The notes beneath the pieces are model-generated. The model was not told where the DNA came from. It saw only the letters and a list, made by a program, of their open reading frames with translations, and searched no databases. The position numbers and the translations under genes are program-made. DNA of 64,000 nucleotides from Candidatus Giovannonibacteria bacterium RIFCSPHIGHO2_01_FULL_45_24. Its GTDB lineage: Bacteria; Patescibacteriota; Minisyncoccia; UBA11713; 2-01-FULL-45-33. Positions 16,672-60,711 of the stretch are shown piece after piece. The DNA lies in contig MFHE01000002.1 in NCBI GenBank assembly GCA_001778495.1, positions 17,995 through 81,994 on the forward strand, written 5' to 3'. Position 1 is the first letter of the stretch; every line of letters begins with the position of its first letter.

Positions 16672-16706
16672 AAGTGCAAATCTGACAGCTATAGCGTTGA
16701 AACTTG
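16672..16706. repeat. 35-bp direct repeat, copy 1 (upstream of ychF)
   Basis: AAGTGCAAATCTGACAGCTATAGC is identical to 17328-17351. 31/35 overall. Confidence 0.9.
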
Positions 16707-16732
16707 TAATTGGATTTTATAAACAATAATCG

Positions 16733-17335
16733 TTATAAATTAAACCGATTTTTCATATGAAGTTCATTATCAATTTCGGCAGCTGTAATAAATCGGACGT
16801 GAGGTCTTACATTAAAAAATTCTATTATAAAATCAACTTCATTTCTGCATTCAAATGGATGAATAAATACGCTTTTTTGGAATTTTATGAATCCTGCATT
16901 TTTTAATACTCTGGCTAAAGCGTCTCTGGCTCTTTTCATGTTTTCCGGTATATCAAAAAGGACTATACGCCATTTGTGGTCCCATCTTTTCATCGGCGGT
17001 ATTTTTAATTCATCAATTTGATAAGTCAGGGCTTTCTTTTTGCCGCGCTCGGTTAAGACAAGTGTGGTTGTGCCGTTTGCATTATCTTTGGCATCTATGA
17101 GACGAGAGCGGTATAAACTTTTTATGGCGTTGTAAAGCGCCCGTCGTTCAATATTGAGCCATTCTTTTCCAATCATTTTTATAATTTTAAAGTATCGCTG
17201 CGGGGAATGCGTAAGCCCAAGAGCCAAGCCACCCAAGAGCAAAAGTACCACTTTTTGAGCCGTCGGGCCTATGCGCGGTTCCGAATAACGTTTTCGCATA
17301 ATTGCCATGATAGCGCGCATCAGATGTAAGTGCAA
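16733..17335 (-). CDS. PaaX-like / Cas2-fold winged-helix regulator-like protein
   Basis: C-terminal KWRIVLFDIPENMKRARDALARVLKNAGFIKFQKSVFIHPFEC pattern (PaaX_C/Cas2-like). AT-rich. True start probably Met at 17308 or 17299. Confidence 0.6.
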   Translation of the reverse strand: MHLHLMRAIMAIMRKRYSEPRIGPTAQKVVLLLLGGLALGLTHSPQRYFKIIKMIGKEWLNIERRALYNAIKSLYRSRLIDAKDNANGTTTLVLTERGKKKALTYQIDELKIPPMKRWDHKWRIVLFDIPENMKRARDALARVLKNAGFIKFQKSVFIHPFECRNEVDFIIEFFNVRPHVRFITAAEIDNELHMKNRFNL

Positions 17336-17365
17336 ATCTGACAGCTATAGCTGTGAAGTTTGCAC
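17328..17365. promoter_or_regulatory. 35-bp direct repeat, copy 2 = nested palindrome (candidate operator)
   Basis: GTGCAAA-tctg-ACAGCTATAGCTGT-gaag-TTTGCAC, with a perfect 14-bp palindrome at 17341-17354. Sits at the 5' end of the regulator gene. Confidence 0.55.
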
Positions 17366-17407
17366 TACGGGTTTATTGTAGCTTTAACGTGCGTTTGATG
17401 TAAAAAT

Positions 17408-17509
17408 AAAAAAACCGCCGAGGCGTATTACTTTCGGCGGAGGCGGAGACGGTGATATTCGCGAAGCTCTGTTTCTTCTTCAAGCTCTCCATCGGCAAAG
17501 GCAATGTTA
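17408..17509 (-). ncRNA. candidate ~100-nt small RNA or 5' attenuator upstream of the regulator gene
   Basis: Minus-strand TTGACA (17544-17539), 17 nt, TAACAT (17521-17516). Then terminator CCGCCGA/TCGGCGG (17415-17440) followed by a run of seven U residues (plus-strand A-run 17408-17414). Confidence 0.2.
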
Positions 17510-17580
17510 TTATAAATGTTATTATATAAGTAATCTTTTGTCAAGTATCTTAAAATGAGGCTAAATCGTAGAATGTGGTA

Positions 17581-19797: not shown

Positions 19798-19799
19798 TT

Positions 19800-19837
19800 T
19801 TTAATTATACCTCAATAATCACCGGCAAAACCATGGG
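19800..19837. repeat. 38-bp direct repeat, copy A
   Basis: TTTAATTATACCTCAATAATCAC(C/A)GGCAAAACCATGGG, 37/38 identical to 20520-20557, exactly 720 bp away. Confidence 0.95.
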
Positions 19838-20516
19838 GCTCTTTCATGATTAATTCCACAAAAAACATTGCCCAGAGCGCGGTAAAGCCAAGAAACATTA
19901 TGCCGAAACTGGCAGCCAGCAATATTGTGTTAGTGGTAAGAATCATGGACCATCCACCTATTCCACCAAGAAGAAAAGTTATGGAGAATAAGGTTTTTTT
20001 CACAGCCGTCTTTGCGTTCTTGGCCGGCATAGTAAAAAGAAAATATCCGGAGACCAAAGCCGCTGACATCCCAAGCGCGGCCACTACTATGTTAAAAGGA
20101 TACGACACGTTCCAGTGTATAATTCCATAAACATCAACGCTTGGCGCAGGGATGTGTACTGTGTGAACTGCGCCTAAAATCAATATAAACAAAGGCATGG
20201 CTATTTTGAAAAATTTAGTAAGCGCTATTTTATTCCACGATGTTAGCGTAACGAGTAATGGATTGTATATCGCGACAAAAAAAGCCAGCGTGCCTAATAT
20301 ATAAAATACGCCGTTTGCCCTTACCGTCTCGGCATTTATGAATATGGGTATTCCGTAAAAGCCGAGAGACAACGACTCTATCATGCCAAGCCGGAAGAAC
20401 ATTTTAGTATACTCGTTCCCAGTTTTTTTATACGCGCTCCGAAACCACAACCCGTACGAGAAAGTCGCCGCCATAGAATAAAAATACACCGCCGACGAAA
20501 CAGGAAAAGGATTCAT
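19812..20516 (-). CDS. polytopic membrane protein, unknown function
   Basis: About 7 hydrophobic segments. Bracketed by the 38-bp direct repeats. Confidence 0.6.
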   Translation of the reverse strand: MNPFPVSSAVYFYSMAATFSYGLWFRSAYKKTGNEYTKMFFRLGMIESLSLGFYGIPIFINAETVRANGVFYILGTLAFFVAIYNPLLVTLTSWNKIALTKFFKIAMPLFILILGAVHTVHIPAPSVDVYGIIHWNVSYPFNIVVAALGMSAALVSGYFLFTMPAKNAKTAVKKTLFSITFLLGGIGGWSMILTTNTILLAASFGIMFLGFTALWAMFFVELIMKEPHGFAGDY

Positions 20517-20519
20517 TGC

Positions 20520-20557
20520 TTTAATTATACCTCAATAATCACAGGCAAAACCATGGG
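20520..20557. repeat. 38-bp direct repeat, copy B (covers the RNase J 3' end)
   Basis: See 19800-19837. Confidence 0.95.
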
Positions 20558-22309
20558 CCGCCTTTTAGTTTTTTGGAAAAGGTAGGAGCCCAGCCGCTCG
20601 CGGACGTTGTCGCGGACGTGGGTATAATTTATGGGATGCATTTTATTCGTGGATTCTTCTACCACGCGCTTTACGAGATGCCGCGTGTGCGCAAGAAGCT
20701 CGTGGGATTCTTTGAGATAAATAAACCCTCGCGAGATTATGTCCGGTGAACCTTTTACCTGCCCGGTTTTTGAATCAACCGCCGCAATCACCACGAAAAT
20801 GCCGTCCTGTGAGAGCATCCGGCGGTCGCGCAGAACCACCTCTTGCACGTCTCCGATGCCGAGGCCGTCCACCATAACGTAAAAAGCGTCAACGGTTTTG
20901 TCGGTGATGACCACGCTGTTTTTGCCGAACTCCGCGACTTGGCCGTTGTCCATCAAAATGATACGTTCTTTGCCGATGCCTATTGGTTTCAAATTCTGAA
21001 TGTTAGCTGCGCGTTTGAAATAGAAGCCGTGGATGGGAATAATAAATTTCGGCTTGCAGATTTTAGCGACTATCGTCAGGTCGTCGCCGGGGGCGTGGCC
21101 GGATGAATGGATGTCCAGGTCGTCATTTGTGATGACAATCGCTCCTTGGCGGGTAAAGTTGTCTTTGAGGGTCTGTACGGCGCGCTCATTGCCGGGGATT
21201 ACCGAGGAAGAAAACATAATCGTGTCGCCCGGCTTAGCATGGATGTGTTTATGCTCGCGGTTCGCGATTCGCATGAGCCCGGAGTTTTCCTGCCCCTGCG
21301 CGCCGGTTGAGAGAATAAGTATTTCATTGTCTTTGTGTCTGCCTAACTCCTCAACTTGGATGAGCGTACCCGGTTTGTATTTTATGTAGCCGAGCTGTTT
21401 GGCGATTTCAAGATTGTCTTTCATGCTCCGCCCGTTGATTACGACTTTGCGCCCGATTTTTTCCGCGATTTTCACGATTTCGGCCATGCGGGTAATCATG
21501 GATGAAAATGTTGAGAGAATAATACGGCCCTTGGCTTCCAAAAAAGTTTTTTCAAGATTGGCCTCAACCAATTTTTCCGAAACAGAATGCCCCTCTATGT
21601 CCGCGTTGGTGCTGTCTAAAAACAGCGTATGGACGCCGAGCTTGGACAGCCGCTCAAATTCATGGATATTTTGAACCGTGTCTTCTTGGTCGTAATCAAG
21701 CCGGAAGTCGGCGAAATGCACCATAATGCCCGCGGGAGTATGGAACGCCACTCCGGTTGTGTCCGGCACGGTGTGGCTTACGCCGAAAAACTCGGCGGTC
21801 AAATGCTCGGAGAGCTTAACTTTGTCGCGGTTTTTTATTTCTACAAAGCGCATTTTCGGAACGTTCGGCATTTCGCTTAAGCGTTTTTGGAGGATTTCTC
21901 TGATGAGCCGCGTGCCGTAGATCGGCGGATTTCCGAGCCGCTCCAACACGTAGTGGACTGCGCCGAAATGGTCGTAGTGCCCGTGGGTTATGAGAAGCGC
22001 CCTGATGTTTTTCTTTTTTTTCTCAAGATAGCTCGTGTTAGGTATAATCCAATCCACGCCCGGGGTTTCTTCCTCGGGAAACTGTATGCCCATGTCAATG
22101 ATTACAATTTCATCATTGTATTCAAAAAACGAGCAGTTGCGACCGACTTCCTCCAGCCCGCCCAAGGGGACATAGTAAAGCGTGTCGCGCTTTAGAGCCG
22201 CGGCGTGGCCGCGAACTTCGCGGCCGGTCAGCGAGCCCTCTTTATAAAATTTGCGGTCGGAAGTTACATTTAATGTTCTGATTCTTGTTCTTGGTTGTCT
22301 TGGCGGCAT
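20525..22309 (-). CDS. rnj: ribonuclease J
   Basis: Metallo-beta-lactamase LITHGHYDHFGAV and beta-CASP/RMMBL layout. About 590 aa. Confidence 0.9.
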   Translation of the reverse strand: MPPRQPRTRIRTLNVTSDRKFYKEGSLTGREVRGHAAALKRDTLYYVPLGGLEEVGRNCSFFEYNDEIVIIDMGIQFPEEETPGVDWIIPNTSYLEKKKKNIRALLITHGHYDHFGAVHYVLERLGNPPIYGTRLIREILQKRLSEMPNVPKMRFVEIKNRDKVKLSEHLTAEFFGVSHTVPDTTGVAFHTPAGIMVHFADFRLDYDQEDTVQNIHEFERLSKLGVHTLFLDSTNADIEGHSVSEKLVEANLEKTFLEAKGRIILSTFSSMITRMAEIVKIAEKIGRKVVINGRSMKDNLEIAKQLGYIKYKPGTLIQVEELGRHKDNEILILSTGAQGQENSGLMRIANREHKHIHAKPGDTIMFSSSVIPGNERAVQTLKDNFTRQGAIVITNDDLDIHSSGHAPGDDLTIVAKICKPKFIIPIHGFYFKRAANIQNLKPIGIGKERIILMDNGQVAEFGKNSVVITDKTVDAFYVMVDGLGIGDVQEVVLRDRRMLSQDGIFVVIAAVDSKTGQVKGSPDIISRGFIYLKESHELLAHTRHLVKRVVEESTNKMHPINYTHVRDNVRERLGSYLFQKTKRRPMVLPVIIEV

Positions 22310-22358
22310 AATTTTTTATTTAATTTTTTTAATTATAATGTTAATTGATAATATTTTA

Positions 22359-22442: not shown

Positions 22443-22446
22443 GCAT

Positions 22447-24772: not shown

Positions 24773-24783
24773 GGGGGAGTAAT

Positions 24784-25031: not shown

Positions 25032-26315
25032 CTATGTCAACAAGCGCTTTCTGTGTAATTTTCTATAATGCGAAATCGCGAAGCGGTGGGCTTCGGAGTC
25101 CAGCATTAAAATAAAATTTTTGAGCGGTTCGGGGAGGCGCGGAAGGGGGACGGGAGACGTTTTACCATTTATAAAAATATGGTCACCAATATGTTTTTTG
25201 TTTTTGGTGAGAGCGATTATTTTACTTGGCGGTTTAACCGCCAAGGCCGCGCTAAGCTGTGCCCTGCCGCCGTCAACAATAATCACTTGCGGGTAAGGCC
25301 ATTCTTTATGTCTTAGTCGTCTGAAAATAATTTCGCGGAGCATCGCCGGGTCGTTTGAGGTTTTAATACTTCTGATTTTAAACAGCCGATAGCAATTTTT
25401 TTGAATTTTGCCGTCAGCGAAAACGGCCATAGAGCCGTAGGCGAATTGGCCATGAATATTGGCGATGTCGTAGGACTCTATTCTATTTATTGCGGGAATA
25501 TCCAAAATTGATTCCAAGGCCCTGCTGGCCTTGGCGAATTCGGTCGGAAGGTCCTGTTTAATTACTCCCCTGTGTTCAAAGATTTTTTCCAGCGCGCGGA
25601 TTTGGTCGCGGATTTTGCCGGCCTCTTCGTATTTTCTGGCGTCGGAGAGTTCGCGCATTTCTTTTTTGAGCGCGCGGGCAAGAGTTTTATTGTTGCCGGA
25701 GAGTATTTGCTTGATTGCGCGGATGTTTTTTTGGTATTTCCCCAGCGCAGAAAGATCCTGCTCTAAAAGCAGGGCTTTCTGCGCTACGCAACAATAGCCC
25801 AAACATCTCCCAATGCGCGCATTAAGGCACGGCCGCCTGTGAGGTTTTTTGCATGTGCAGTAGGGAAAAGCGCGGCGCAAGGTCTTGAGCGCCGAGCGTA
25901 AAACCCCGCCTTCAGTGAAGGGGCCGATGTAGTCGGCTTCGCGGTTTTTCTGATGCGTGATAAATATCTTTGAAAAATTTTCTTTAGAGAACCCGACATA
26001 AAAATACTGCTTATCGTCGCGCATCAGCACGTTGTATTTCGGCAGGTGTTTTTTAATGAGCCCCGCTTCGCGGATTAAGGCCTCGGTTTCGGAGTTTAAA
26101 ACCTCCCAATCCAATATTTTGGCTTTTTTTAGCAAGGCAATCAACTTGGCGGTTAAACCGCCAAGTGGCGGTTTAACCGCTTTTCCGAAATATGACCTGA
26201 TCCGCGCGCGCAGATTCGCCGCCTTTCCTATATATAGAATCTCCCCACTTTTGTTTCGGAAAAAATAAATCCCGGGCGCATTTGGCGCTTTTTTAAAGTC
26301 CTTTTTGGTGAGCAT
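25032..26315 (-). CDS. uvrC: excinuclease ABC subunit C (short form; I could not find a C-terminal (HhH)2 domain)
   Basis: GIY-YIG N-terminus (GIYFFRNKSGEILYIGKAANLRARIRSYF), a Cys cluster, a UVR domain and an RNase H-like domain. 427 aa. Confidence 0.9.
   Translation of the reverse strand: MLTKKDFKKAPNAPGIYFFRNKSGEILYIGKAANLRARIRSYFGKAVKPPLGGLTAKLIALLKKAKILDWEVLNSETEALIREAGLIKKHLPKYNVLMRDDKQYFYVGFSKENFSKIFITHQKNREADYIGPFTEGGVLRSALKTLRRAFPYCTCKKPHRRPCLNARIGRCLGYCCVAQKALLLEQDLSALGKYQKNIRAIKQILSGNNKTLARALKKEMRELSDARKYEEAGKIRDQIRALEKIFEHRGVIKQDLPTEFAKASRALESILDIPAINRIESYDIANIHGQFAYGSMAVFADGKIQKNCYRLFKIRSIKTSNDPAMLREIIFRRLRHKEWPYPQVIIVDGGRAQLSAALAVKPPSKIIALTKNKKHIGDHIFINGKTSPVPLPRLPEPLKNFILMLDSEAHRFAISHYRKLHRKRLLT
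25225..25245. repeat. REP-2-like palindrome, in frame in uvrC
   Basis: CTTGGCGGT-TTA-ACCGCCAAG. Confidence 0.8.
26145..26180. repeat. REP-2-like palindrome plus overlapping inverted half-copy, in frame in uvrC
   Basis: CTTGGCGGT-TAA-ACCGCCAAG followed by TGGCGGT-TTA-ACCGC. Confidence 0.8.
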
Positions 26316-26571: not shown

Positions 26572-26576
26572 AAAGA

Positions 26577-45648: not shown

Positions 45649-46372
45649 CCCAAATCCGATTTAGGGCAATCATATAATAATCATAGCATTGATATATGCG
45701 AAAAAACCCTTTTATCACTGGCAGTTTTTATCATGTTTACGCGCACACAATAAGTGATTTAGCGCTTTTTCGTAACGAGTGGGACTATAAAAGATTTTTA
45801 TGCACGTTTTTCGCTGCTAATGGAGATGGCGCTGTTCTTCGTTTGGATCGCCAGAATGACCTAAATCCGATTTGGGGCATACGGGATGGGACAGTAGATA
45901 TCGGAAAGCCGCTTGTAGATATAGTTTGTTTTTGTCTCATGAACACCCATTTCCACTTGCTTTTGGGAGAGCGTGGAGATGGAAATATTTCTAAATTTAT
46001 GCAAAAGCTTATGATCAGCTATGCCAAATATCTAAATCTAAAGTACGAACGCCGAGGGCACGTGTTTGAAAGCAGATTTCATTCCAAGCTTTTGGATGAT
46101 AATGAATATTTTTTGCGGGCTTCGTGCTATATTCACTTGAATCCAAAAGATGCACGCGGATGGAAAAATATTGAGTATAAATATCCTTGGTCAAGCTACC
46201 AAGACTACCTCGGCGATTCTCGCTGGGGCAGACTTTTGAAAGACGAGACTATACTTTCACAATTTAAAACCAAACTGGCGTATAGGGAATTTGTGAGAGA
46301 AGCGCGCCCGGAATTATCCGATTATGCAGAGCATGTTGTTTTTCTAAACTGACCCAAATCGGATTTGGGGCA
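45646..46372 (+). mobile_element. RAYT-1 unit: Y1/HUH transposase gene bracketed by 23-nt REP-1 hairpin copies
   Basis: TGACCCAAATC(C/G)GATTT(A/G)GGGCA at 45646-45668 and 46350-46372. A third copy lies at 45857-45879 inside the ORF. Confidence 0.75.
45696..46352 (+). CDS. REP-associated tyrosine transposase-like protein (IS200/Y1_Tnp family)
   Basis: FYHVY..., HUH motif in CLMNTHFHLLL, C-terminal Tyr motif ASCYIHLNP. Confidence 0.8.
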   Translation: MRKNPFITGSFYHVYAHTISDLALFRNEWDYKRFLCTFFAANGDGAVLRLDRQNDLNPIWGIRDGTVDIGKPLVDIVCFCLMNTHFHLLLGERGDGNISKFMQKLMISYAKYLNLKYERRGHVFESRFHSKLLDDNEYFLRASCYIHLNPKDARGWKNIEYKYPWSSYQDYLGDSRWGRLLKDETILSQFKTKLAYREFVREARPELSDYAEHVVFLN

Positions 46373-47508: not shown

Positions 47509-47563
47509 CATTGTGAATATCAATGGATTGCCTCATTTTTCAAAGTCTTTTAAAATTAAGTTA

Positions 47564-49915
47564 ATGAAGTTTTTAGCCAAGCCGCTTTTAGCTTTTGCTT
47601 TTCTCTTTCTTTTTGCCGCGCCCGCCTTTGCCGGCCCCAACGATAATCTCTCCGGCGGGGCATGGGCCGATAATATCGGCGCGATCAGTTTTAATTCCAC
47701 AAATCATGATGGCGACGTAGATTACGGCGTTAGCGTTGATCAAGCTGGAAATCTCTCCGGAGAAGCATGGTCCGACAATGCAGGATGGATAAGTTTTAAC
47801 GCAGGGGACGTTGCGGGGTGTCCGCAGGACCCGCCGGCGGTTCCGTGCGCGCCGAAATTGAATCGCGAAACGGGAGTTGTTTCCGGTTGGGCAAGGGCTT
47901 ATCGCGCCATAGAGCCGGAAGGTCAGACACTCGGCGGCTGGGATGGATGGATTCATCTTAGGGGAAAGGTCCAAAGCGATAATTCAGATTTTGGTGTTTT
48001 GGCAAGCGGCTGTGATTGGGGCGGGCTTGCCTGGGGCGGCACTGATTATAGTCTGGGTTTTACCGGCTGGGTTCAATTTGACGCCGAAGGCACCGGCTTT
48101 GCCTGCGTTGAAGTTGTTCAACCCGGACTGCGCGTCGTTCCACATTCCGCCGATCTTGAAGTCGGAGGGCAAATGCCTTTCCAAGCTCTTTACGACCCGG
48201 ATGGTTCCAGCCCACAGCCGGAAACAGACGTTACTGAATCGGCTTCCTGGTCTTCTTCAGGCCCCGCAGTAGCCGTCGTAACAAATATTTCTCCCAAGGG
48301 CATAGTAACGGGTGTATCGCCCGGGGATGCCAATATCACCGCGACTTATCTCGGAACAAACGACTCGGCTTTGGTTAATGTTACTCAATCACCGCCATCT
48401 GTTCCCAAATGCGAACCAACTTCTCAATCAGGGAAAGTCGGCGATCCATTCGGTTTCACCGCCAAGGACGGCTCATCTCCATACAGCTGGTCCGCTCCTT
48501 CGGGGACTCCATCTTCCGGCGCGGGATCTTCTTTCATCACAAGATACTCTTCCCCCGGCAACTACGTTGTTACTCTCACTGACTCCGCAAGTAGGTCCGA
48601 CACTTGCTCCGTGAGCGCAGAGAGGGTTGAGGACCCTGAAAACCGCGTTCCGGTTGCCGAAGCCGGCATTTCAACGGACGGCTCAACTTACTCAAGCAAA
48701 ATCATTGTTACAAAAGGGGTCCCGACCAGAATTTACTTTTCTGCCGATGAAGATGTAACCGGAGATGGAGCCGCGAGCCGCGACCCGGACGGCTGGACTC
48801 ACCCGACTCTGGGAGTTTCCAACGGAGGAAGTTGCGCGTGGAACGCCGACCTCAATCAAGGAACTCCGACTTTTGAAAAAACTTTTGGCAGTCCGCCATC
48901 GCCGTCCGGCTGCAATTTCAATCAAGAATACACTTTTAACGATGACCTTGAGGGGCAGCAATCCAAAACCTTCACTTACGAGGTGCTTAAAATCACAGAC
49001 GCAAGAGGGGCGGTTTCAAACATAGGATTCGTGCAAGTGGAGGTGAGAGCCGAGGGCGGATTTACCTGCAACTCATTGAAGCAGTGCGTCTTTGGCGGCG
49101 GGGGAGAAAGTTGTAGGATTACTCCGGAGTGCGAAAGCGTTATTGTAGACCCGCCTGTCTGCACAAGCAACTGCGGAGGAGGCGGAGGAGGCGGAGGAGG
49201 CTGCACTGATCCGGTAACATGCCCTGTTGTTACAGATCCCAACGCTTTAGAGCTTGGCTCCGACACCAGTTTTTTCTGCCCGTCTCATCAGGTTGAACTT
49301 AAATGGAATTACTCCGATCCAAACGGCGACCAGCAAGCGTCTTTTAGATTACAGGTTGATAACAATTCAGATTTTTCATCAATGATTGTTGACGTTTACC
49401 AAGACTCTTCAAATAAACTTTTTATTGTCCCGCCGAATGTGCTTTCTTTCAGCACAACGTATTATTTCAGAGTCGCGGTAAAAGATTCAACCGGCGCGTG
49501 GTCAAACTGGTCTTCTTCCGCCAATTTCACGACGCCGGCAAGTTGTCCTCCGGCGGCGAGCTTTAAACTCCGCAGAACGAAAGACATCTCTGTGAATGTC
49601 ACTGGCGTAGGCGCTGGAACAAGCGATTCAACGACGATTTGGGTTGAGAAGATCGGAGCGTTTTCCGGCACGGTAATACTCGTTCCGCAATCCATCTCGC
49701 CGAATATTCCCGGCGCGTCTTTCAGTTTCGCAACCGCTTCGCTGGATCAAGATCATTATTCGTCCGGTTTTAGCTTCAAGGTCACGGTTCCGGGGTCTAC
49801 CGCGCCTGGCAATTACACTATTAAAATTAAAGGGACGAGCGGCGGCGTGCCGGACGCTTTTGTTGACGTCCTGCTTAGAGTAAATTTTACCAGCCCGGAT
49901 TTTAGGGAAATATAA
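47564..49915 (+). CDS. large secreted multi-domain surface protein (module 1, gene c)
   Basis: Signal peptide MKFLAKPLLAFAFLFLFAAPAFA. Repeated G.AW...GWISFN motifs, a Big_2-like segment and many Cys pairs. The C-terminal domain is shared with 52021-53265. Confidence 0.75.
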   Translation: MKFLAKPLLAFAFLFLFAAPAFAGPNDNLSGGAWADNIGAISFNSTNHDGDVDYGVSVDQAGNLSGEAWSDNAGWISFNAGDVAGCPQDPPAVPCAPKLNRETGVVSGWARAYRAIEPEGQTLGGWDGWIHLRGKVQSDNSDFGVLASGCDWGGLAWGGTDYSLGFTGWVQFDAEGTGFACVEVVQPGLRVVPHSADLEVGGQMPFQALYDPDGSSPQPETDVTESASWSSSGPAVAVVTNISPKGIVTGVSPGDANITATYLGTNDSALVNVTQSPPSVPKCEPTSQSGKVGDPFGFTAKDGSSPYSWSAPSGTPSSGAGSSFITRYSSPGNYVVTLTDSASRSDTCSVSAERVEDPENRVPVAEAGISTDGSTYSSKIIVTKGVPTRIYFSADEDVTGDGAASRDPDGWTHPTLGVSNGGSCAWNADLNQGTPTFEKTFGSPPSPSGCNFNQEYTFNDDLEGQQSKTFTYEVLKITDARGAVSNIGFVQVEVRAEGGFTCNSLKQCVFGGGGESCRITPECESVIVDPPVCTSNCGGGGGGGGGCTDPVTCPVVTDPNALELGSDTSFFCPSHQVELKWNYSDPNGDQQASFRLQVDNNSDFSSMIVDVYQDSSNKLFIVPPNVLSFSTTYYFRVAVKDSTGAWSNWSSSANFTTPASCPPAASFKLRRTKDISVNVTGVGAGTSDSTTIWVEKIGAFSGTVILVPQSISPNIPGASFSFATASLDQDHYSSGFSFKVTVPGSTAPGNYTIKIKGTSGGVPDAFVDVLLRVNFTSPDFREI
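49175..49201 (+). repeat. tandem (GGAGGAGGC)x3 encoding Gly9 between two Cys codons
   Basis: A perfect 9-nt unit repeated three times, in frame. Confidence 0.9.
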
Positions 49916-49925
49916 TAAAATTGGG

Positions 49926-50261
49926 ATGGAAGAGCAATTTTCAAAAACAATAAGAACGACCACCCTGATTTTAATCGCGGCTTTGGCCATTGCGGCAATT
50001 TATTATTATTGGACTCAATTGTCCGGAATTGAACCCGCAAAAGAAGAAAGGCCGTTTTATGTGCCCGCGCCAACTAACGCCCCGCCATTGCCGGAAACGA
50101 AAGAGTTTATCCCGGAGCCCACTAAAGCCCCGCCTCTTCCAGCAAGCAAGGCGCCGGAGCCGACTAATGCACCCACTCTTGAAGAATTAGGAACACCACC
50201 ATCTTCCACACCGCTTCCGGAGGGCTCCGCTCCTCCTCCCACCGGCGCACCTGCTTTATAA
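49926..50261 (+). CDS. small single-pass membrane protein with Pro-rich repeated tail (module 2, gene a)
   Basis: TM segment [17 protein letters not shown], then (A/E)PT(N/K)APPLP repeats. The stop overlaps the next start (TAATG). Confidence 0.55.
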
Positions 50262-51937
50262 TGAATCTTATGAAGAACCAAACTAACAATTTATTAAAAG
50301 ATGTGGCTAAAGTGGCGGTTTTCGGAGTTGCGTTTTTGGTGTTGCAGGCGCTTGCGTTTACAGAGCCCTCGCAATCTCCTCCCTGGGGCAATACTCCTGC
50401 TCCGTTAAATGTTTCCGGCTCAACGCAAGCTAAAAGCGGAGAGCTTCAGATTCCAATTCTCCGCGACTACAACAATCCCGGCTATTACGTTGACCCCGAT
50501 GCCAATTCGTGGCTCTACCGGCTTTATTCTTTTGAATTAAGATCGGAGGATAAAATCTGTTTTAAAGGGGACTGCAGGACATCATGGCCCTCCAGCGGTA
50601 CCGACAGCCAAACCCTTTCCATCAGTGGGCAAACTCTTTCTATTTCCGGCGGAAATAGCGTCGCTTTGCCGGCGGGGGGAGATATTACCGCGGTTAATGC
50701 GGGAGCTGGTCTTTCTGGGGGAGGAGCTTCCGGCGATGTCGCGCTTTTCGCAGACACCGGCTATCTGCAAAGAAGAATAAGTGACACGTGCGGCGCCGGT
50801 TCGTCCATTCGGGCAATAAATTCTGACGGCTCTGTTGTTTGCGAAGCGGATGACGCCGGTACTGGAGGTATTGGAGCAGAATCCGACACTTTACAAAGCG
50901 TAACCGACCGCGGCAATTCAACCTCTCAAAATTTGACCTCTCCGATAGTCTATGACTACAACAATGCTGGCTACTACGTTGACCCCGCAGCCAACTCGTG
51001 GCTTTACAGATTATATTCTTACGAACTTTGTCTTCGCAACGATTGCGTCACTTCTTGGCCTCCCGGTCCGCCGGGACCGCAAGGTCCGGCAGGCCCGACT
51101 GGACCCACTGGCGCAACCGGAGCAACGGGAGCTGCCGGACCACAGGGCCTCAAAGGGGATACTGGAGCAGCTGGTTCAAAAGGCGACACAGGGGCGACTG
51201 GCACGACGGGCCTCCAAGGTCCGCAAGGTCCTGCAGGACCAGCTGGCGACATTACGGGTTCAAATCCCAACTGGTTGCGCGCTCTTTGGCTGGAGGCGAC
51301 CAATTATCTTAAGGCTCCGATTCTTTACGATCGCGACAATGAGGGATATTATGTTGATCCCGCTTCCAACTCAATATTTTTTAGGTTATATTCCTATGAT
51401 TTAAAGTCGCTAGACCGGATTTGCCTTCGCGGCGATTGCCGCACCTCGTGGCCATCCGGCGGCGGCTCTGACAGCCAGACGCTTTCCATAAGCGGTCACA
51501 CTTTATCTATTTTCGGCGGCAACAGCGTCTCATTACCCGATAATGACAGCCAGACTTTATCTCTAAGCGGCCAGACGCTTTCCATCTCCGGCGGCAACAG
51601 CGTTAGTTTGCCATCCGGCGGCGGCTCTGACAGTCAGACGCTTTCTTTTAATCCAGATACCTATAATCTTAATATTTCTGGCGGAAACAGCGTGACATTG
51701 CCCGGGCAAAAAGTTTGCATCGGTTATCATACCGAAGGAGATAATTGGCACGACATTTTGCAAGTGCCGACTGGCTGGACGATATCAACATGCCGCAACG
51801 GGTTAAAAACATTCAGTAGTTCCATAAAGAAGTTTATGTTGGGGTGCATTTTTACAAATTCCTTCTCAAAATCGCCGGGCGACTTTGTGGGCATTAACAA
51901 TAATCCAAGTTTGCCTTCACCAAATTGCGGCTGGTAA
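50261..51937 (+). CDS. secreted collagen-like fibre protein (module 2, gene b)
   Basis: Signal ...LQALA|FTEPS and [20 protein letters not shown]. 20 G-X-Y triplets (about 51065-51247). Repeated [14 protein letters not shown] and [19 protein letters not shown] units. Confidence 0.8.
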
Positions 51938-51956
51938 ATTATTAATCCTTAGGAAG

Positions 51957-51977
51957 TTAGGAAGTCCGACTTCCTAA
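51957..51977. repeat. intergenic REP-like hairpin
   Basis: TTAGGAAGT-CCG-ACTTCCTAA, preceded by a partial duplication of the left arm. Confidence 0.8.
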
Positions 51978-52020
51978 TGATTTTGCTTGCTTGATAGATT
52001 GAATTTGATAGAATTAAAAT

Positions 52021-53265
52021 ATGGTTAAAAATTTCAGAGTTGGCGCGGTTTTGGCGACTTTGGTTTTCGGGGCGGCTTTTTATTTTCTTCCGACTTTTCA
52101 CTCTCCAGAAGTCCAAGCGGGCTCCGAGCATAATCTTTCCGGGTGGGCGTGGTCGGAAAATATCGGCTGGATAAGTTTTAACTCAACCAATCAGGGTGGT
52201 GGGGCGAACTACGGCGTGACGGTTGACAGTGGCGGCAATCTTTCCGGCTACGCCTGGTCGGAAAACATCGGCTGGATTGATTTTAATGAGAATACCGGAT
52301 GCCCATCTTCTCCCTGCCGGCCGAAACTGAACCGTTCCAGCGGGCAAGTTTCCGGATGGGTTAAGGCCTTGGCGGCGGGCGGCAGCGGTTGGGACGGCTG
52401 GATTCGCCTTCGTGGATCTAATTACGGAGTTGGTGTTAACGGCTGTGACTGGGATGGGTATGCTTGGGGGTCTGATGTTGTGGGATGGATTCATTTTAAG
52501 GGATCAAATTACGGCGTTTCGGGAACTGGATCCGGCTGCGGCGTTCAGCCCGATTTGCTCGTTTCAAGCGGCCCGCTGCTTAATTTCGGCGTTTTGGTCG
52601 GAGGGACGACGGTCAATTTCAAGGGCACCGTGCGCAATCAGGGCGACGCAGAAGCCGTAGGCGCTTTTTCTAATCGCTTTCAGGTTGACATTGATAATAA
52701 CGGCTCGGTTGATTTAACGCTTACTCCAAATCCAACATTGAGCGGCCTCGCCGCCGGAAGATTTTCTGAAGTGGTTTCCGGAAACTGGAGCAATATCCCC
52801 GTCGGCACGCACCGCGTTGTTCTTTGCGCCGACCAGCCCGGCCCGACTATTGCCGAATCCAACGAAAATAACAACTGCTCGGAAAGCTTATTCACCGTCT
52901 CCGTGCCGGAGTTTTACCTATTAAGCTCAAACGAGCTTGATATTGATGTCACCGGCGTGGGAGATTCTTCAAGCGGCACTACCAAAATAACCGTGATTCC
53001 GGTCGGAGCTTTTACCGATGACGTCGCATTGTCTGTACAGTCCGTTTCGCCGTCTTTGCCTGCTGGGACAATTTATAATTTCGTGCCGCAAACCCTGAAG
53101 AAAAATCAGTATTCTTCCGGTTCAAATTTTAAAGTGACGGTTCCCGGAGACACCGCGGAGGACGAGTATATTATTACCATTGTAGGCCAAAGCCCTGGAC
53201 TCAACCGGACAATCAATGTTACACTTCATGTTAATTTAAAGATTCCGGAATTTAAAGAAATTTAA
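52021..53265 (+). CDS. secreted surface protein, paralogue of 47564-49915 (module 2, gene c)
   Basis: Same N-terminal GWAWSENIGWISFN repeat domain and same C-terminal domain, ending PEFKEI versus PDFREI. Confidence 0.75.
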   Translation: MVKNFRVGAVLATLVFGAAFYFLPTFHSPEVQAGSEHNLSGWAWSENIGWISFNSTNQGGGANYGVTVDSGGNLSGYAWSENIGWIDFNENTGCPSSPCRPKLNRSSGQVSGWVKALAAGGSGWDGWIRLRGSNYGVGVNGCDWDGYAWGSDVVGWIHFKGSNYGVSGTGSGCGVQPDLLVSSGPLLNFGVLVGGTTVNFKGTVRNQGDAEAVGAFSNRFQVDIDNNGSVDLTLTPNPTLSGLAAGRFSEVVSGNWSNIPVGTHRVVLCADQPGPTIAESNENNNCSESLFTVSVPEFYLLSSNELDIDVTGVGDSSSGTTKITVIPVGAFTDDVALSVQSVSPSLPAGTIYNFVPQTLKKNQYSSGSNFKVTVPGDTAEDEYIITIVGQSPGLNRTINVTLHVNLKIPEFKEI

Positions 53266-53266
53266 C

Positions 53267-54446: not shown

Positions 54447-54447
54447 C

Positions 54448-55416
54448 ATGCTTTATGATGTTATAATTATCGGCGGGGGCCCTGCCGGAGCGGCGGCGGC
54501 AGTGTATGCTGCCAGAAAAAAACTAAAAACGCTTTTAATTACCGATTCTTTCGGCGGGCAATCGCTTGTTTCCAGCGATATCCAAAACTGGATAGGCGAG
54601 CCGCATATTTCCGGATTTGACCTTGCGCAAAAACTTGAAGCGCACGTGCGCTCCTTTCCGGACGCTGTTGAGATAAAGACATCGGAGAGGGCGACGGCAA
54701 TTCGCAGCATCAAGTGCAGTGAAGAGAGGATTTGTGATTTTGAGGTCAAAACCGACCAAAATAATGTTTATGAAGCTAAAACGCTGATTTTAACAATCGG
54801 CGCAAGAAGAAAAAAACTCGGCGTGCCAGGAGAAGAGAAATTTGAAGGCAAGGGCGTGGCTTATTGCTCAACCTGCGACGCGCCGCTTTTTTCCGGGAAG
54901 CGAGTCGCGGTTGTGGGCGGCGGCAATGCCGGATTGGAAGCAGTAGTTGACCTTTTCCCTTATGCTTCGGAAATTTATTTAATCCATCGCGGAGACGCTC
55001 TAAAAGGGGACCCGGCGGAGCAAGAAAAAATCAAGAAAAATCCTAAACTTAAAGAGATAATCTTGAATGCGGAGACATTGGAAATTTTGGGGGACAGGTT
55101 TGTTGCCGGATTGAAATATAAAAATTCAAAGACCGGAGAAGAAAAAGCGTTGAGCGTTGAGGGGGTTTTTGTGGAAATTGGCTCCCAGCCCAATTCTGAA
55201 ATAGTTAAAGATTTGGTTCTTTTAGACCAATGGGGGCAGATAAAAATTGACCCGCGGCACGGTTCAACCTCGCACCCGGGAATTTTCGCGGCCGGAGACG
55301 TCACCGACGACCCGTACAAACAAAACAATATTTCGGTAGGCGACGCCGTAAAAGCGGCTTTGGCGGCATATAATTATTTACTCAAGCGCGAAAAACAACC
55401 CCCCGCGGCCGGTTAG
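54448..55416 (+). CDS. trxB: thioredoxin-disulfide reductase
   Basis: DVIIIGGGPAGAAAA, redox CSTC, second GGGNAGLE fold, and AAGDVTD. Confidence 0.88.
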   Translation: MLYDVIIIGGGPAGAAAAVYAARKKLKTLLITDSFGGQSLVSSDIQNWIGEPHISGFDLAQKLEAHVRSFPDAVEIKTSERATAIRSIKCSEERICDFEVKTDQNNVYEAKTLILTIGARRKKLGVPGEEKFEGKGVAYCSTCDAPLFSGKRVAVVGGGNAGLEAVVDLFPYASEIYLIHRGDALKGDPAEQEKIKKNPKLKEIILNAETLEILGDRFVAGLKYKNSKTGEEKALSVEGVFVEIGSQPNSEIVKDLVLLDQWGQIKIDPRHGSTSHPGIFAAGDVTDDPYKQNNISVGDAVKAALAAYNYLLKREKQPPAAG

Positions 55417-55420
55417 TTCC

Positions 55421-56128
55421 CACTTGGCTGTCCGACAGCCAAGTGTTATATTTTATTTATGAGAAAAACTCGTTTTGGTAACGGAGAATTTTATCATATT
55501 TATAATCGCGGTACCGATAAGCGTCGGGTATTTTTAGACCAAGAAGATTTTAAGCGTTTTTTGCAGAGCATGAACGAATTTAACAGCCAAATACCTATCG
55601 GCAGTTTATTTGAGAACTCTTTTAGGGGCGAAACTAAACTTGGCAGTCGGACTGTTAAGTTGGTTGATATCGTTTGCTATTGTCTTAATCCTAACCACTA
55701 TCATTTAATGCTTCGTCAGCGCATTGAAAATGGAGTTAGTGAGTTTATGAAACGATTGAGTGGTGGTTATACTCAATATTTCAATATTAAATATAAAAGA
55801 AGCGGCGTGCTTTTTCAAGGTAAATTTAAGGCGACGCACATAGATTCTAATGAATATCTTTTACATGCCAGCGCATATGTTAATTTGAATAACCGCGTTC
55901 ATCATATTAATGACAGATCATCACGATCAAGTTGGGGAGAATGTCTCGATGACAATAGCGGTATGTGCGCTAAAGATATTATATTGAAGCAATTTAAGAA
56001 GCCCGTCGAGTATAAAGAATTTGCTGAAAGTTCGCTAAGAGATATTTTAGAGCGGAAACAACTGCATAAAGAACTGGAAAAAATATTACTAGAAAATTAG
56101 CCACTTAGCTGTCGGACAGCTAAGTGGC
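55421..56128 (+). mobile_element. RAYT-2 unit: Y1/HUH transposase gene bracketed by REP-2 hairpins
   Basis: CACTTGGCTGT-CCG-ACAGCCAAGTG (55421-55445) and CCACTTAGCTGT-CGG-ACAGCTAAGTGG (56101-56127). Internal copy at 55638-55660. Confidence 0.8.
55459..56100 (+). CDS. REP-associated tyrosine transposase-like protein (IS200/Y1_Tnp family)
   Basis: FYHIYNRG..., HUH motif in CLNPNHYHLML, Tyr motif ASAYVNLN. TGtTATATT ends 7 nt before the ATG. Confidence 0.8.
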   Translation: MRKTRFGNGEFYHIYNRGTDKRRVFLDQEDFKRFLQSMNEFNSQIPIGSLFENSFRGETKLGSRTVKLVDIVCYCLNPNHYHLMLRQRIENGVSEFMKRLSGGYTQYFNIKYKRSGVLFQGKFKATHIDSNEYLLHASAYVNLNNRVHHINDRSSRSSWGECLDDNSGMCAKDIILKQFKKPVEYKEFAESSLRDILERKQLHKELEKILLEN

Positions 56129-56285
56129 ATGTGGTCACGAAAAATGCCCCCTATGCTGCAGGATGACCTCCTGATGCTCTAGAAGTGTTAATTGGACTTT
56201 TTAGTAAACTTTATTATGATATAAATATGTAGGTGTGGCAATTTCTTTATACATCAAGAGTTTTATTGGTAAAATGTAATTACAT

Positions 56286-58334: not shown

Positions 58335-58677
58335 CATTATTATGGCAGAATTAAATAGTGAACAAAAGCAATATATCGAACACTGGTCTCCAGAAGTTGC
58401 TCTAGGAACAATAATTTGGACTATAGGTCACAAACAATGGCTCTATACTTTACTTCTTTTGGTGCCAGGAGTGAATTTTTTCCTTTGGCTTTTCTTAATT
58501 TTTAAGGGGCGAAAGAAAGTTTGGGAATCTGGTAGATACTTAACATTCGAAGCATTCAAAACATTCGAAGCATTCAAAGATCGCGAGGATAAGCTACGAA
58601 TCGTTGTTATAACCATTGTCATAATTTTGATTTTGTTAGGAATATTAGAGGTTGTAGTTGATTTTTGGATAGTATAG
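58327..58677 (+). CDS. hypothetical membrane protein with tandem TFEAFK repeat (AT-rich)
   Basis: Hydrophobic segments. An exact 18-bp tandem duplication lies at 58543-58578. Confidence 0.5.
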   Translation: MNNIIMAELNSEQKQYIEHWSPEVALGTIIWTIGHKQWLYTLLLLVPGVNFFLWLFLIFKGRKKVWESGRYLTFEAFKTFEAFKDREDKLRIVVITIVIILILLGILEVVVDFWIV

Positions 58678-58692
58678 CTGTATTATAAATAT

Positions 58693-58902
58693 ATGACCAC
58701 ACAAGCTATTTCAAAAGCGATAAAAAGCAGTAAACCGGCCGTGATTAAAGAACACGGTAATCCGCGATATGTTGTTTTAGATTGGAAAACCTATCAAGCA
58801 TGGGCAGAATTGCGCGATGAAATGGAGGACTCCGTGCGGTTAAATGAGGCATTGCGCGATCCAAAAAACCAGCGGCGTGTAAAATATAACGGCAAATTCT
58901 AA
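58693..58902 (+). CDS. type II antitoxin (Phd/YefM-like)
   Basis: 69 aa. KPAVIKEHGNPRYVVLDWKTYQAW. Sits upstream of a RelE-like ORF with a 9-nt gap. Confidence 0.65.
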   Translation: MTTQAISKAIKSSKPAVIKEHGNPRYVVLDWKTYQAWAELRDEMEDSVRLNEALRDPKNQRRVKYNGKF

Positions 58903-58911
58903 AATATCTTC

Positions 58912-59184
58912 ATGGCCGAGATATTTATTAGGCCGCGGGCTACTGACGGGTTTAAATCGGCAGGCAAAGAAGAACAACAAAAAATTAAAGCCGCTATAGA
59001 AGTTTTAAGAAACGGAAAATTGCCAGCGCATACTAAAAAATTAAGTGGCACAACTTCCGGCTACAGAATCCGCGTTGGCAAATGGCGGATTTTATTTGTT
59101 TTATGGAGAGGAGAAATTGATATCGTAGATATTTTTATTAAAAAAGCAAAGATGATTACAAAAAATTATAGTATAATTAAATAA
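58912..59184 (+). CDS. type II toxin (RelE/ParE family)
   Basis: 90 aa. SGYRIRVGKWRILFVLWRGEIDIVDIFIKK pattern. Confidence 0.7.
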   Translation: MAEIFIRPRATDGFKSAGKEEQQKIKAAIEVLRNGKLPAHTKKLSGTTSGYRIRVGKWRILFVLWRGEIDIVDIFIKKAKMITKNYSIIK

Positions 59185-60044
59185 TGCCGCATCTACATGA
59201 AGATAAAATTAAATTTTTAGAAGAAAAAGCGAATGCCGTAAGGCAGTCCATTATTGAAATGCTTGTTGAGGCGGGGAGCGGGCATACGGCCGGGCCTTTG
59301 GGAATGACGGATGTTTTTACCGCTTTTTATTTTCATATTTTAAACCACGACCCGAAAAACCCGGAGTGGGAGGAGCGCGATCGTTTGATACTTTCCAACG
59401 GCCACATCTGCCCGGTGAGATACGCCGCGATGGCTCACGCGGGATATTTTCCGCTGGAAGAACTTAAAACCTTAAGAAAATTTGGGACACGCCTTCAGGG
59501 GCATCCGCATCGCACCGCTTTGCCGGGCGTTGAGACGACCTCGGGTCCGTTGGGGAGCGGGTTGGGGCAGGCGGCCGGGTACGCTTACGCCGCGAAAATG
59601 GACAAGCGCAAGTTTAAAGTGTACTGTTTTATGTCTGACGGCGAGCAGGATGCTGGAAACACTTGGGAGTCGGCAATGTTTGCCGGGAAATATAAATTAA
59701 ATAATCTTATCGGGCTTATTGACCGCAATAATATTCAGATTGATGGGATGACCGAAGATATAATGCCGCTGGAGCCGCTGCGAGACAAATACGAATCCTT
59801 TGGCTGGCACGTTCTGGAAATCAACGGGCATGATTTTGAGGAAATTGTGAACGCAGTTGAGGAAGCGAAGGCGATTTATGAAAAGCCGACAGTTATTGTT
59901 TCGCACAATATTCCCGGAAAAGGAATAAAAGAAATAGAGTTTGATTATGAGTGGCACGGCGTCCCGCCAAATAAAGAACAGGCCGCGAAGTTTTTAGCGG
60001 AGCTCCGTACGCTGGGCGGTAAAATAAAGAGCGAACATGAATAA
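59184..60044 (+). CDS. transketolase, N-terminal (TPP-binding) subunit
   Basis: GHTAGPLGMTDV...SNGH...GHPH...SGPLGSGLGQAAG...DGEQDAGNTWE. Confidence 0.92.
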   Translation: MPHLHEDKIKFLEEKANAVRQSIIEMLVEAGSGHTAGPLGMTDVFTAFYFHILNHDPKNPEWEERDRLILSNGHICPVRYAAMAHAGYFPLEELKTLRKFGTRLQGHPHRTALPGVETTSGPLGSGLGQAAGYAYAAKMDKRKFKVYCFMSDGEQDAGNTWESAMFAGKYKLNNLIGLIDRNNIQIDGMTEDIMPLEPLRDKYESFGWHVLEINGHDFEEIVNAVEEAKAIYEKPTVIVSHNIPGKGIKEIEFDYEWHGVPPNKEQAAKFLAELRTLGGKIKSEHE

Positions 60045-60087
60045 GGGTATTTCAGTAGTTTGGCTGATTGTTGATAGAAATTACTTT

Positions 60088-60711
60088 ATGACGAGTAAAA
60101 TCCAAAAAATCTTCCCAGTGATCATCGTAGTGTTTTTGAGTTTGTATTCGCTAGGGCGACCGTTGTCGGCCTTCGCCTATCAATGCGAACAATCGAAGTC
60201 TTTTGTTGAGGACTTTGAACAATCCTCTGCTGTTTTCGTTGGCGAGATAACTCAAATTGTTAAAATAGAGCCCGTTGGAACACCGGAAGGCGGACCTTCG
60301 GTAAGATTCGAAGTAAACAGGACATACAAGGGGAATTTGGAAAAAACAGTTGATATAAGGGTAGATGGTATCGGTGGTCTTGGCTATGGCTTTTGTGACG
60401 TTCATCTTAAAGAGGGTGAAACTTATTTAGTATATGCCTCCGGAAATCCGTTAAGCACGAATATTTGCACACGCGGAATCGGTAGTTGTAATAGGACTAG
60501 ACTTTTGAAATATGCTTCAGAGGATTTAGCTATCCTTACTGGGGAAGCAACAACTCCCATGCCGGTGGAGGATAGAGAAGAAGTCGGGTCACCAGAACCA
60601 AAAACAAGTTTGCTTTCCACAGAGGCGCTTATCATAGGATCTGCTATGTTGATAATCGGAATTTTTATAGGGAGGACTTTTGGTGGCAAAATTAAGAGCG
60701 AACACCAGTGA
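60088..60711 (+). CDS. secreted, C-terminally anchored protein (possible TIMP/NTR-like OB module)
   Basis: Signal peptide ...SAFA|YQC. Cys pattern and VFVGEI... resemble NTR/TIMP-like modules (weak). C-terminal TM segment plus tail RTFGGKIKSEHQ. Confidence 0.5.
   Translation: MTSKIQKIFPVIIVVFLSLYSLGRPLSAFAYQCEQSKSFVEDFEQSSAVFVGEITQIVKIEPVGTPEGGPSVRFEVNRTYKGNLEKTVDIRVDGIGGLGYGFCDVHLKEGETYLVYASGNPLSTNICTRGIGSCNRTRLLKYASEDLAILTGEATTPMPVEDREEVGSPEPKTSLLSTEALIIGSAMLIIGIFIGRTFGGKIKSEHQ

Follow-up and report, generated by a model that had tools for sequence, protein, structure and literature searches.

We analysed a 64,000-nt chromosome segment (the window) of the patescibacterium Candidatus Giovannonibacteria bacterium RIFCSPHIGHO2_01_FULL_45_24 (assembly GCA_001778495.1, contig MFHE01000002.1, positions 17,995 to 81,994), in which five single genes stand at junctions between core genes, each bracketed by a pair of direct repeats. 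They encode a PaaX-like regulator (case 1), a membrane protein between RNase J and TrpRS (case 2), two RAYT proteins (cases 3 and 4), and a secreted or membrane protein between TktN and TktC (case 5). A previous reading of the sequence alone had proposed from them a recurrent mode of gene gain. Recurrent gain with duplicated junction sequence is supported by our analysis, and it is broader than this sequence-only reading saw: in related genomes, copies of core-gene ends surround accessory genes at several junctions and punctuate whole arrays of them.

Patescibacteria have tiny genomes, overlapping genes and few classical mobile elements. The genes of the window (48% GC) are densely packed, with many overlaps of the ATGA type, and an identical contig is present in several Rifle aquifer assemblies, including GCA_001780675.1. 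By its TrpRS, the closest named relatives are Candidatus Giovannonibacteria. For comparison we assembled about 100 usable loci of relatives (1.1 Mb, labelled L###) from a TrpRS scan of species genomes and a TrxR scan of metagenomes, and mapped the window proteins onto them to distinguish filled from empty gaps; two of these loci, L174 and L175, differ solely by N-gaps in the NCBI scaffold. A word-indexed search for homologues of the case 2 membrane protein gave two, and TrpRS relatives and their contigs were used instead. Pfam searches of the genes called between 12.8 and 64 kb revealed no integrase, recombinase or other transposase domain besides the two Y1 genes of cases 3 and 4. RecA is encoded near the insert region.

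Five repeat pairs enclose single genes at core-gene junctions

The five pairs, with the start positions of their two copies, are as follows.

Case 1, 16672/17328, PaaX-like gene between PMM and YchF: 24 nt exact, 49 nt at 80%
Case 2, 19800/20520, membrane-protein gene between RNase J and TrpRS: 45 nt at 91%
Case 3, 45646/46350, RAYT1 between DUF4015 and LapA-like genes: 23 nt at 91%
Case 4, 55420/56101, RAYT2 between TrxR and GAPDH: about 25 nt
Case 5, 60015/60682, 224-aa protein gene between TktN and TktC: 20 of 23 nt

All of the pairs claimed previously were thus found where they had been placed, and each encloses one open reading frame (ORF). A scan requiring at least 20 of 23 matches at a spacing of 500–900 nt returned seven pairs in the window, namely the five cases and two repeats within a collagen-like gene, and none in 30 shuffles of the sequence, far above chance. 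A stricter ungapped scan (score ≥18) gave 5 matches versus ~0.05 per shuffle. The remaining significant direct repeats of the window lie inside large surface proteins (Big_2, collagen-like, CARDB; 47513-53265). The inserted genes are also AT-richer than their surroundings, as had been suggested, with 35.5–42.7% GC versus 46–50% in the flanking genes.

Empty counterparts exist for all five inserts. RNase J and TrpRS abut directly in at least six relative loci and TrxR and GAPDH in more than 15, PMM and YchF abut in two, the DUF4015 and LapA-like genes in L095, and TktN and TktC in the two closest relatives, L094 and L095. In other genomes the same gaps are filled differently, by toxin–antitoxin (TA) pairs, PaaX-like genes or different RAYT subfamilies. 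Empty sites and alternative fillings at the same junctions together mean that gene gain there is real.

The five cases are nevertheless not products of one common mechanism, as had been supposed, and fall into three kinds: junction duplications (cases 2 and 5), RAYT/IS200-like units (cases 3 and 4) and a PaaX-like module (case 1). The similar unit size of 0.65–0.72 kb, previously read as a mechanistic clue, comes from genes that happen to be alike in length; in relatives, bracketed units measure ~200–1700 nt. The idea that the repeat consists of the end or start of a neighbouring gene holds for cases 2 and 5 and for many relatives, but not for cases 1, 3 and 4, whose repeats are element-borne palindromes missing from empty sites. 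Similarly, the reported lack of integrase and attC stands, whereas that of insertion sequence (IS) ends does not, the hairpins of cases 3 and 4 being ends of the IS200 or repetitive extragenic palindromic (REP) type.

Neighbouring gene ends are duplicated in cases 2 and 5

The features of case 2 are listed below.

20520-20564, minus strand: native RNase J 3′ end (..PMVLPVIIEV and stop), with the Shine–Dalgarno sequence (SD) for the next gene; assigned by translation, tail kept in L014, L178 and L181
19812-20516, minus strand: cargo, a 234-aa multi-pass membrane protein without Pfam family, GC 42.7%
19800-19844, minus strand: second, displaced RNase J 3′ end, which carries an SD (GAGG) and TATAAT and immediately precedes the TrpRS start; assigned by sequence alignment

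The copy upstream of TrpRS is the derived one, because L014, L178 and L181 conserve the RNase J tail. The membrane protein takes its last nine codons and its stop from this tail copy, in another frame; compared with its homologues, it breaks off after ..MKEP and continues in the copy, with 3 nt of microhomology (GCC) at the join. In L014 (where the gene is present as two tandem copies), L179 and L181, the homologues end in C-termini of their own, a separate spacer leads to TrpRS, and the tail copy is missing. On this comparison, case 2 would be explained most simply by the import of DNA carrying RNase J and the membrane-protein gene where RNase J abutted TrpRS.

In case 5 the gap between the transketolase halves TktN and TktC holds the following features.

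60015-60044, plus strand: native TktN 3′ end (GGKIKSEHE and stop), which contains the start codon of the 224-aa gene; translation and alignment
60037-60711, plus strand: cargo, a 224-aa secreted or membrane protein of no family, GC 41.8%, with an N-terminus paralogous to those of g77 and g305
60682-60711, plus strand: displaced TktN tail copy (GGKIKSEHQ and stop), which gives the cargo its C-terminus and stop; alignment
60759-62100, plus strand: three further inserts between TktN and TktC, g59 (60759-60938), g77 (60938-71) and g305 (61183-62100), absent in L094 and L095
60938-60956, plus strand: copy of the TktC start region, forming the start of g77 (MFLNPK.. vs MPINPK..); 15/19 matches, 0/500 shuffles
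61180-61206, plus strand: copy of the TktC initiation region, forming the start of g305 (AATATGCCTTTAAATTCGAAAG; MPLNSK..); 23/27 matches, 0/500 shuffles
62099-62125, plus strand: native TktC initiation region (MPINPKVKL); translation and alignment

The empty junction of L094 and L095 reads ..GGKIKSEHE and stop, TA, ATGCCAATAAATCCGAAAG. The two TktN tails of the window are different alleles (ending EHE and EHQ), each of which is native in other lineages, and the displaced one runs straight into g59, matching the arrangement of the native TktN tail in L111. The copies of the TktC start at g77 and g305 had escaped the sequence-only reading. In L120, an insert in the same gap likewise starts MPINPK, like TktC, and paralogues elsewhere have other starts. 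Judging from their related N-termini, the 224-aa gene, g77 and g305 form a small paralogous family of predicted secreted proteins. Within it, g77 and g305 share a 105-nt N-terminal repeat (60944-61048 and 61189-61293; signal or anchor region). A putative remnant of the Rpe tail before TktN in the window (12-nt seed 58298/59136) was not significant in this AT-rich sequence (p 0.16).

Related genomes carry arrays punctuated by duplicated gene ends

An ungapped repeat scan of the relative loci found many bracketing repeats, whose extra copies map to the GAPDH tail, the RpiB head, and the Rpe tail or TktN head. Arrays occupy the GAPDH/RpiB, Rpe/TktN and TktN/TktC junctions, and their repeats cover the upstream 3′ end with stop and SD, the start of the downstream gene, or both. 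The GAPDH tail is ~68 nt long (YDNEAGYTATLVEHVRRVAENL and stop, with ATGA overlap) and the RpiB head ~45 nt (MKIYIGSDHAGFEL). Extra copies of these two occur in 9 of 10 distinct filled GAPDH/RpiB arrays, and Rpe tails or TktN heads in 5 of 11 Rpe/TktN arrays. Duplication lengths are not fixed (23 to ~110 nt), and the true junction repeats (cases 2 and 5, GAPDH tail) fold no better than shuffled sequences (z −0.2 to +1.3).

The tail and head copies separate co-oriented cargo ORFs. Cargo domains include AbiEii, MNT/HepT, DUF2204-type nucleotidyltransferase and Phd/ParE-like TA modules, and many other cargos are small proteins of membrane or coiled-coil type. The cargo has neither terminal inverted repeats nor a transposase. 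The same cargo clusters (C numbers) recur in changed order between genomes, behind the native tail in one and a duplicate tail in another. Thus, L135 reads tail[C12]HEAD[C14][C4]TAIL[C13]head and L117 reads tail[C13]HEAD[C14][C4]TAIL[C3]TAIL[C39]head. One nucleotidyltransferase TA module is found at both GAPDH/RpiB and Rpe/TktN, each time joined to the local head and the local tail; at Rpe/TktN a TktN-head copy runs in frame into its first ORF, and its second ends within an Rpe-tail copy. In L095, an AbiEii module is bracketed by a perfect 40-nt duplication of the RpiB head, so such events are still recent.

The duplicated ends also carry expression signals. Tails contain AGGAGG or GAGG 10–14 nt ahead of an ATG (GTGAGGAGG 14 nt before ATGA in GAPDH, GAGGAG in Rpe, GAGG in RNase J), and cargos begin on the ATG of ATGA, with a further ATGA often closing them. 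Many of the tail copies form mini-ORFs whose own in-frame ATG overlaps the preceding stop, so that ribosomes can be relayed to the next gene.

Two further arrangements were seen among the relatives. In L062, a 142-nt copy of the TrpRS 3′ end (1579-1720 and 3230-3371) brackets a phosphomannomutase gene on the reverse strand, so a junction duplication can surround a core gene too. In L015 (3171-3428) and L027 (3047-3256), tRNA-like sequence lies in short tandem duplications.

RAYT/IS200-like units in cases 3 and 4

The features of these two cases are given in order of position.

45646-45668, unstranded: case 3 5′ hairpin of RAYT1, whose first three bases are the DUF4015 stop codon; fold z −2.4
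45696-46352, plus strand: RAYT1, Y1 HUH protein (HFHLLL, YIHLNP), GC 40.6%; Pfam Y1_Tnp (PF01797) 25.6 bits vs cutoff 23
45857-45879, unstranded: in-frame internal hairpin of RAYT1, a third repeat copy
46350-46372, unstranded: case 3 3′ hairpin of RAYT1, beginning with the RAYT1 stop codon; repeat alignment
55391-55416, plus strand: native TrxR 3′ end; alignment
55420-55445, unstranded: case 4 5′ hairpin of RAYT2; −12.1 kcal/mol, z −7.8
55459-56100, plus strand: RAYT2, Y1 HUH protein (HYHLML), GC 35.5%; Pfam Y1_Tnp (PF01797) 32.3 bits vs cutoff 23
55638-55660, unstranded: in-frame internal hairpin of RAYT2, a third repeat copy
56101-56127, unstranded: case 4 3′ hairpin of RAYT2; repeat alignment
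56140-56164, plus strand: degenerate TrxR 3′-end copy (L095-like allele), directly after the RAYT2 3′ hairpin; score 15.5 vs null 6.4 ± 1.2, 0/1000

Domain content and layout assign cases 3 and 4 to a known kind, RAYT/IS200-like Y1 HUH units with their own cognate hairpins. These lie 38–50 nt before the start codon, directly after the stop, and in frame at +178–181 nt, a three-hairpin layout common to three RAYT subfamilies that share only ~35% identity (including members in L094, L099, L112, L135 and L143). Between genomes the stems vary by compensatory changes, and the three copies within one genome match each other. The hairpins belong to the element, because empty TrxR/GAPDH and DUF4015/LapA sites have none. 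RAYT1 and RAYT2 share only ~30–35% identity; the analysis gave neither near-identical copies nor signs of recent transposition.

Orthologues of RAYT2 (61–77%) occupy the TrxR/GAPDH gap of nine loci, one locus across species, and two other RAYT subfamilies in opposite orientation fill it in six loci. A RAYT2 homologue (64%) stands at a different locus in L095 (1299-2111), with two hairpins upstream and one downstream; the TrxR/GAPDH site of L095 itself is empty. The TrxR-tail remnant listed above (p ~0.01 under a best-of-many-tails null) is probably a hidden junction duplication in case 4 and, as such, probably belongs with the true junction duplications. For case 3, the best local alignment of the sequence after RAYT1 to the DUF4015 tail of L095 was not significant (p ~0.2).

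As in REP/RAYT and IS200/IS605 systems, the units combine a Y1 HUH protein and Y..NP motifs with subterminal cognate hairpins at both ends, at ~0.7 kb like IS200. They differ in that both score below the cutoff of 80 for the NCBIfam RAYT model NF047646 (RAYT1 38.2, RAYT2 24.1 bits), in the third, in-frame hairpin, and in that related hairpins in the window lie in core ORFs rather than being extragenic. We found no mention of an internal hairpin within RAYT genes in the RAYT literature searched, which is not proof of absence.

These related hairpins are the subject of a side observation. The REP-like motif ACTTRGC..GCYAAGT has 8 matches in the 64-kb window versus 0.18 expected, and the five outside the RAYT unit are all within ORFs. 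In-frame palindromes of this type lie in core-gene ORFs at 25224-25246, 26144-26180 (uvrC), 36303-36350 (dnaG) and 42529-42551. One palindrome amounts to an insertion of ~8 aa in UvrC relative to homologues, and in DnaG two copies (48 nt) fill a linker with almost no length change, reminiscent of the Rickettsia palindromic elements. A GIY-YIG cassette with inverted repeats, once counted as a sixth case, is in fact complete core uvrC (GIY-YIG, UvrC_M, UVR and RNaseH domains), syntenic in five relatives, with two palindromes inside the ORF rather than bracketing it.

A PaaX-like regulator gene between two palindromes

Case 1 comprises the following features.

16672-16720, unstranded: palindrome copy 1, between the PaaX-like gene and the YchF start, 34 nt from the latter, right half degenerate; z +1.4
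16733-17335, minus strand: PaaX-like regulator (winged helix-turn-helix and PaaX_M/Cas2-like domains), GC 38.8%, start at 17320 in other assemblies; PF20803, 2e-20, 73 bits
17328-17376, unstranded: palindrome copy 2, ~40 nt, near-perfect, 8 nt upstream of the regulator start; −11.4 kcal/mol, z −5.4

The protein has only partial NCBIfam matches; its TIGR02277 score falls far short of the cutoff and sets it apart from PaaX itself. The L014 orthologue has a homologous palindrome pair, and seven more genes of the family stand at other chromosomal sites (L020 5214-5973, L023 6967-7588, L043 14185-14831, L044 288-909, L056 13482-14146, L161 10164-10878 and L162 14496-15139), each between two direct copies of a lineage-specific 32–44-nt palindrome. 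The pair is thus present at 9/9 family members examined. Most likely, the case 1 palindromes are a candidate operator pair of a repressor that moves with its gene as one module; across the family, gene and palindromes may form a portable regulator–operator module or a small mobile unit. The module shares with PaaX-type repressors the winged helix-turn-helix and PaaX_M domains and a palindrome of ~40 nt just ahead of the gene's own start. Unlike them, the protein has ~195 aa and no PaaX C-terminal domain, a second palindrome always follows the gene, and the unit occurs at different loci. No direct description of such modules was found in the literature searched, which does not prove their absence.

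Discussion

Our best model, in which we place slightly more belief than doubt, keeps the three kinds apart and derives the junction duplications from homology-anchored integration with one illegitimate join, followed by selection and later reshuffling. The starting state would be a pair of core genes that abut or overlap (ATGA), the last 25–70 nt of the upstream gene holding the SD of the next. Accessory DNA would enter by recombination anchored in a conserved core gene, either through homology-facilitated illegitimate recombination (HFIR) of taken-up DNA or through a single crossover of a circularised fragment, and its second end would join illegitimately within the resident junction copy. 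The product would read core tail, cargo, old tail, next gene, or be the mirror image with the head of the next gene. Without the duplication, an insertion would leave the essential gene downstream without its ribosome-binding site or cut one neighbour short, and selection would keep those products that retain both core genes and the downstream ribosome-binding site. The need for an undamaged junction copy for survival would explain why the repeat always spans the junction and why its length varies.

Duplicated tails and heads would then act as expression adaptors that supply an SD, a start or first codons, and a stop, with mini-ORFs relaying translational coupling. They would further give homology for the gain, loss and reordering of cassettes by homologous recombination, leading to integron-like arrays without an integrase. 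Neither an integrase nor a HUH enzyme is needed for the junction duplications; RecA and DNA uptake would supply the enzymology. Flanking duplications of 109–950 bp arose in E. coli when a circular molecule with a partial homologous locus integrated by a single crossover (PMC3240628). Among Patescibacteria, natural competence has been shown for cultivated Saccharibacteria only (PMC10633639). The two different TktN alleles of case 5 and the make-up of case 2 favour the anchored route, and so do the GAPDH tails: their last 23 nt show 0.79 identity across genomes before the same cargo versus 0.61 within a genome, and their first 45 nt 0.86 identity everywhere, a pattern that points to crossovers in the conserved part, with the rest co-transferred with the cargo.

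Several points weigh against this model. The linkage of tail and cargo is based on 6 versus 14 pairs. The left end of GAPDH tail copies falls on one base (TACGACAAC, ± 2 nt) behind four or more different cargo ends; such a shared left boundary needs common ancestry of the copies or a site preference, because random illegitimate joins do not predict it. Microhomology at the illegitimate joins is thin, with GCC (3 nt) in case 2, AT-rich stretches in the TA module found at two junctions, and none at L095. Classical HFIR mostly gives deletions, not duplications (PMC3240628). Lastly, no filled/empty polymorphism was seen within the species, the inserts being present in all 12–16 contigs with identical flanking proteins.

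A one-step insertion without a homology anchor would also fit part of the evidence. Here foreign DNA would be ligated into a break whose long staggered ends are filled in afterwards, or a replication template switch would copy the cargo and resume upstream; either would create a long, variable target-site duplication, and selection would then retain only the events spanning a junction. Cargo does lie exactly between two complete copies in L095 (40 nt, 100%) and in case 2, the variable repeat lengths agree, and L095 lacks visible microhomology. We nonetheless consider this route unlikely, since it does not account for the co-variation of the 3′ tail part with the cargo across genomes, or for cargos that reappear in new orders but at the same junctions only.

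The shared left boundary of GAPDH tail copies after different cargos, the ATGA that bounds cassettes on both sides and the co-orientation of the arrays would suit a dedicated, still unknown site-specific cassette system, with ATGA and the adjoining tail as an att-like site and a recombinase encoded elsewhere (compare integron attC/attI or Xer/dif). However, neither the window nor the arrays encode such a recombinase, at least five different junction sequences share no motif beyond SD and ATG, the repeats are unstructured, and ATGA boundaries are also expected from selection for translational coupling. These features make such a system distinctly improbable.

We give very little credence to a purely local origin, by small tandem duplications, decay and de novo ORF birth without horizontal gain. 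It would account for the many tiny cargos (35–100 aa) of no family, for the tandem paralogues g77 and g305, and for the doubled membrane-protein gene in L014. Yet genuine TA domains are found among the cargos, which also turn up in distant genomes and at two types of junction, are AT-richer than their flanks, and are unlike the neighbouring core genes beyond the short tail or head.

Hardly credible at all is the single hairpin/HUH mechanism suggested previously, for instance RAYTs inserting all units in trans: although the window has two Y1 HUH genes and palindromes in three of its five repeat pairs, the junction repeats, both in cases 2 and 5 and in the arrays of relatives (GAPDH tails included), are unstructured and of variable length, they copy the local target whereas Y1 transposition makes no target duplication, arrays also occur in loci without any RAYT, and RAYT hairpins and PaaX palindromes are unrelated in sequence. 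For cases 2 and 5 the mechanism is already contradicted, and the variable repeat lengths speak against a fixed-stagger enzyme as well.

Beyond homology-anchored integration, we raise a broader idea that is doubtful at present: Patescibacteria may own an integrase-free cassette system in which duplicated core-gene ends, with their SDs and their ATGA boundaries, are maintained as functional adaptors that capture small accessory genes (TA modules, small membrane proteins) at many housekeeping operon junctions, express them through translational coupling and exchange them, possibly with a dedicated activity or site preference.

The pattern would offer a route by which accessory genes are gained without breaking essential operons, as the junction copy saves both core genes and the downstream ribosome-binding site. 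The same copy would give the newcomer its expression signals, and the repeats would let cassettes build up and move between species. In practical terms, junction duplication provides a simple genomic signature of recent gene gain in metagenome-assembled genomes, and cultivable Saccharibacteria could be engineered at the safe landing sites that the pattern predicts. The pattern also calls for care in annotation: what is called as a short 'ORF' or an odd C- or N-terminus at such a junction is a copy of a neighbouring gene.

Comparison with known systems

Patescibacterial arrays with duplicated ends of housekeeping genes between their cassettes were not described in the literature searched, which is not proof of absence; several known systems resemble them in part. 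In the C-terminal displacement arrays of Rhs and contact-dependent inhibition (CDI) systems, an incoming unit brings a new 3′ end and the old end is displaced downstream (PMC2935791). These arrays and additive islands at tRNA genes share with ours arrayed units that are each preceded by a gene-end fragment. They consist, however, of toxin tips or kilobase integrase-borne elements, whereas here the junctions are those of housekeeping genes, the units measure 0.2–1.7 kb, and no integrase is involved.

The minimal mobile elements of Neisseria place different cassettes between the same conserved genes, without mobility genes, and their exchange is attributed to transformation and homologous recombination (PMC3787668). 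The relatives show the same feature of different cassettes between the same conserved genes without mobility genes. Unlike the junction arrays, minimal mobile elements are not defined by a junction duplication and have neither gene-end-punctuated arrays nor translational coupling.

With integron arrays, the junction arrays share co-oriented, mostly promoterless single-ORF or TA cassettes between repeats, and cassettes that recur in different orders. They are nevertheless not integrons by the defining features, having no IntI and no attC structure; their repeats are copies of core-gene ends, and several independent sites exist per genome. Nor are they transposons, as they show no fixed-length duplication and no ends.

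HFIR and single-crossover integration with one homologous segment are known in Acinetobacter, Streptococcus pneumoniae, Pseudomonas stutzeri and E. coli (PMC3240628). The likeness lies in one flank anchored in a conserved gene, an illegitimate join on the other side and no enzyme of the element's own and, for the single crossover, in direct repeats of the homologous segment on both sides of the insert. HFIR has been described from laboratory selections and usually gives deletions, whereas here we infer a recurrent natural route that leaves 23–110-nt duplications across junctions and builds arrays. In conclusion, among these systems the junction arrays fit homology-anchored integration best.

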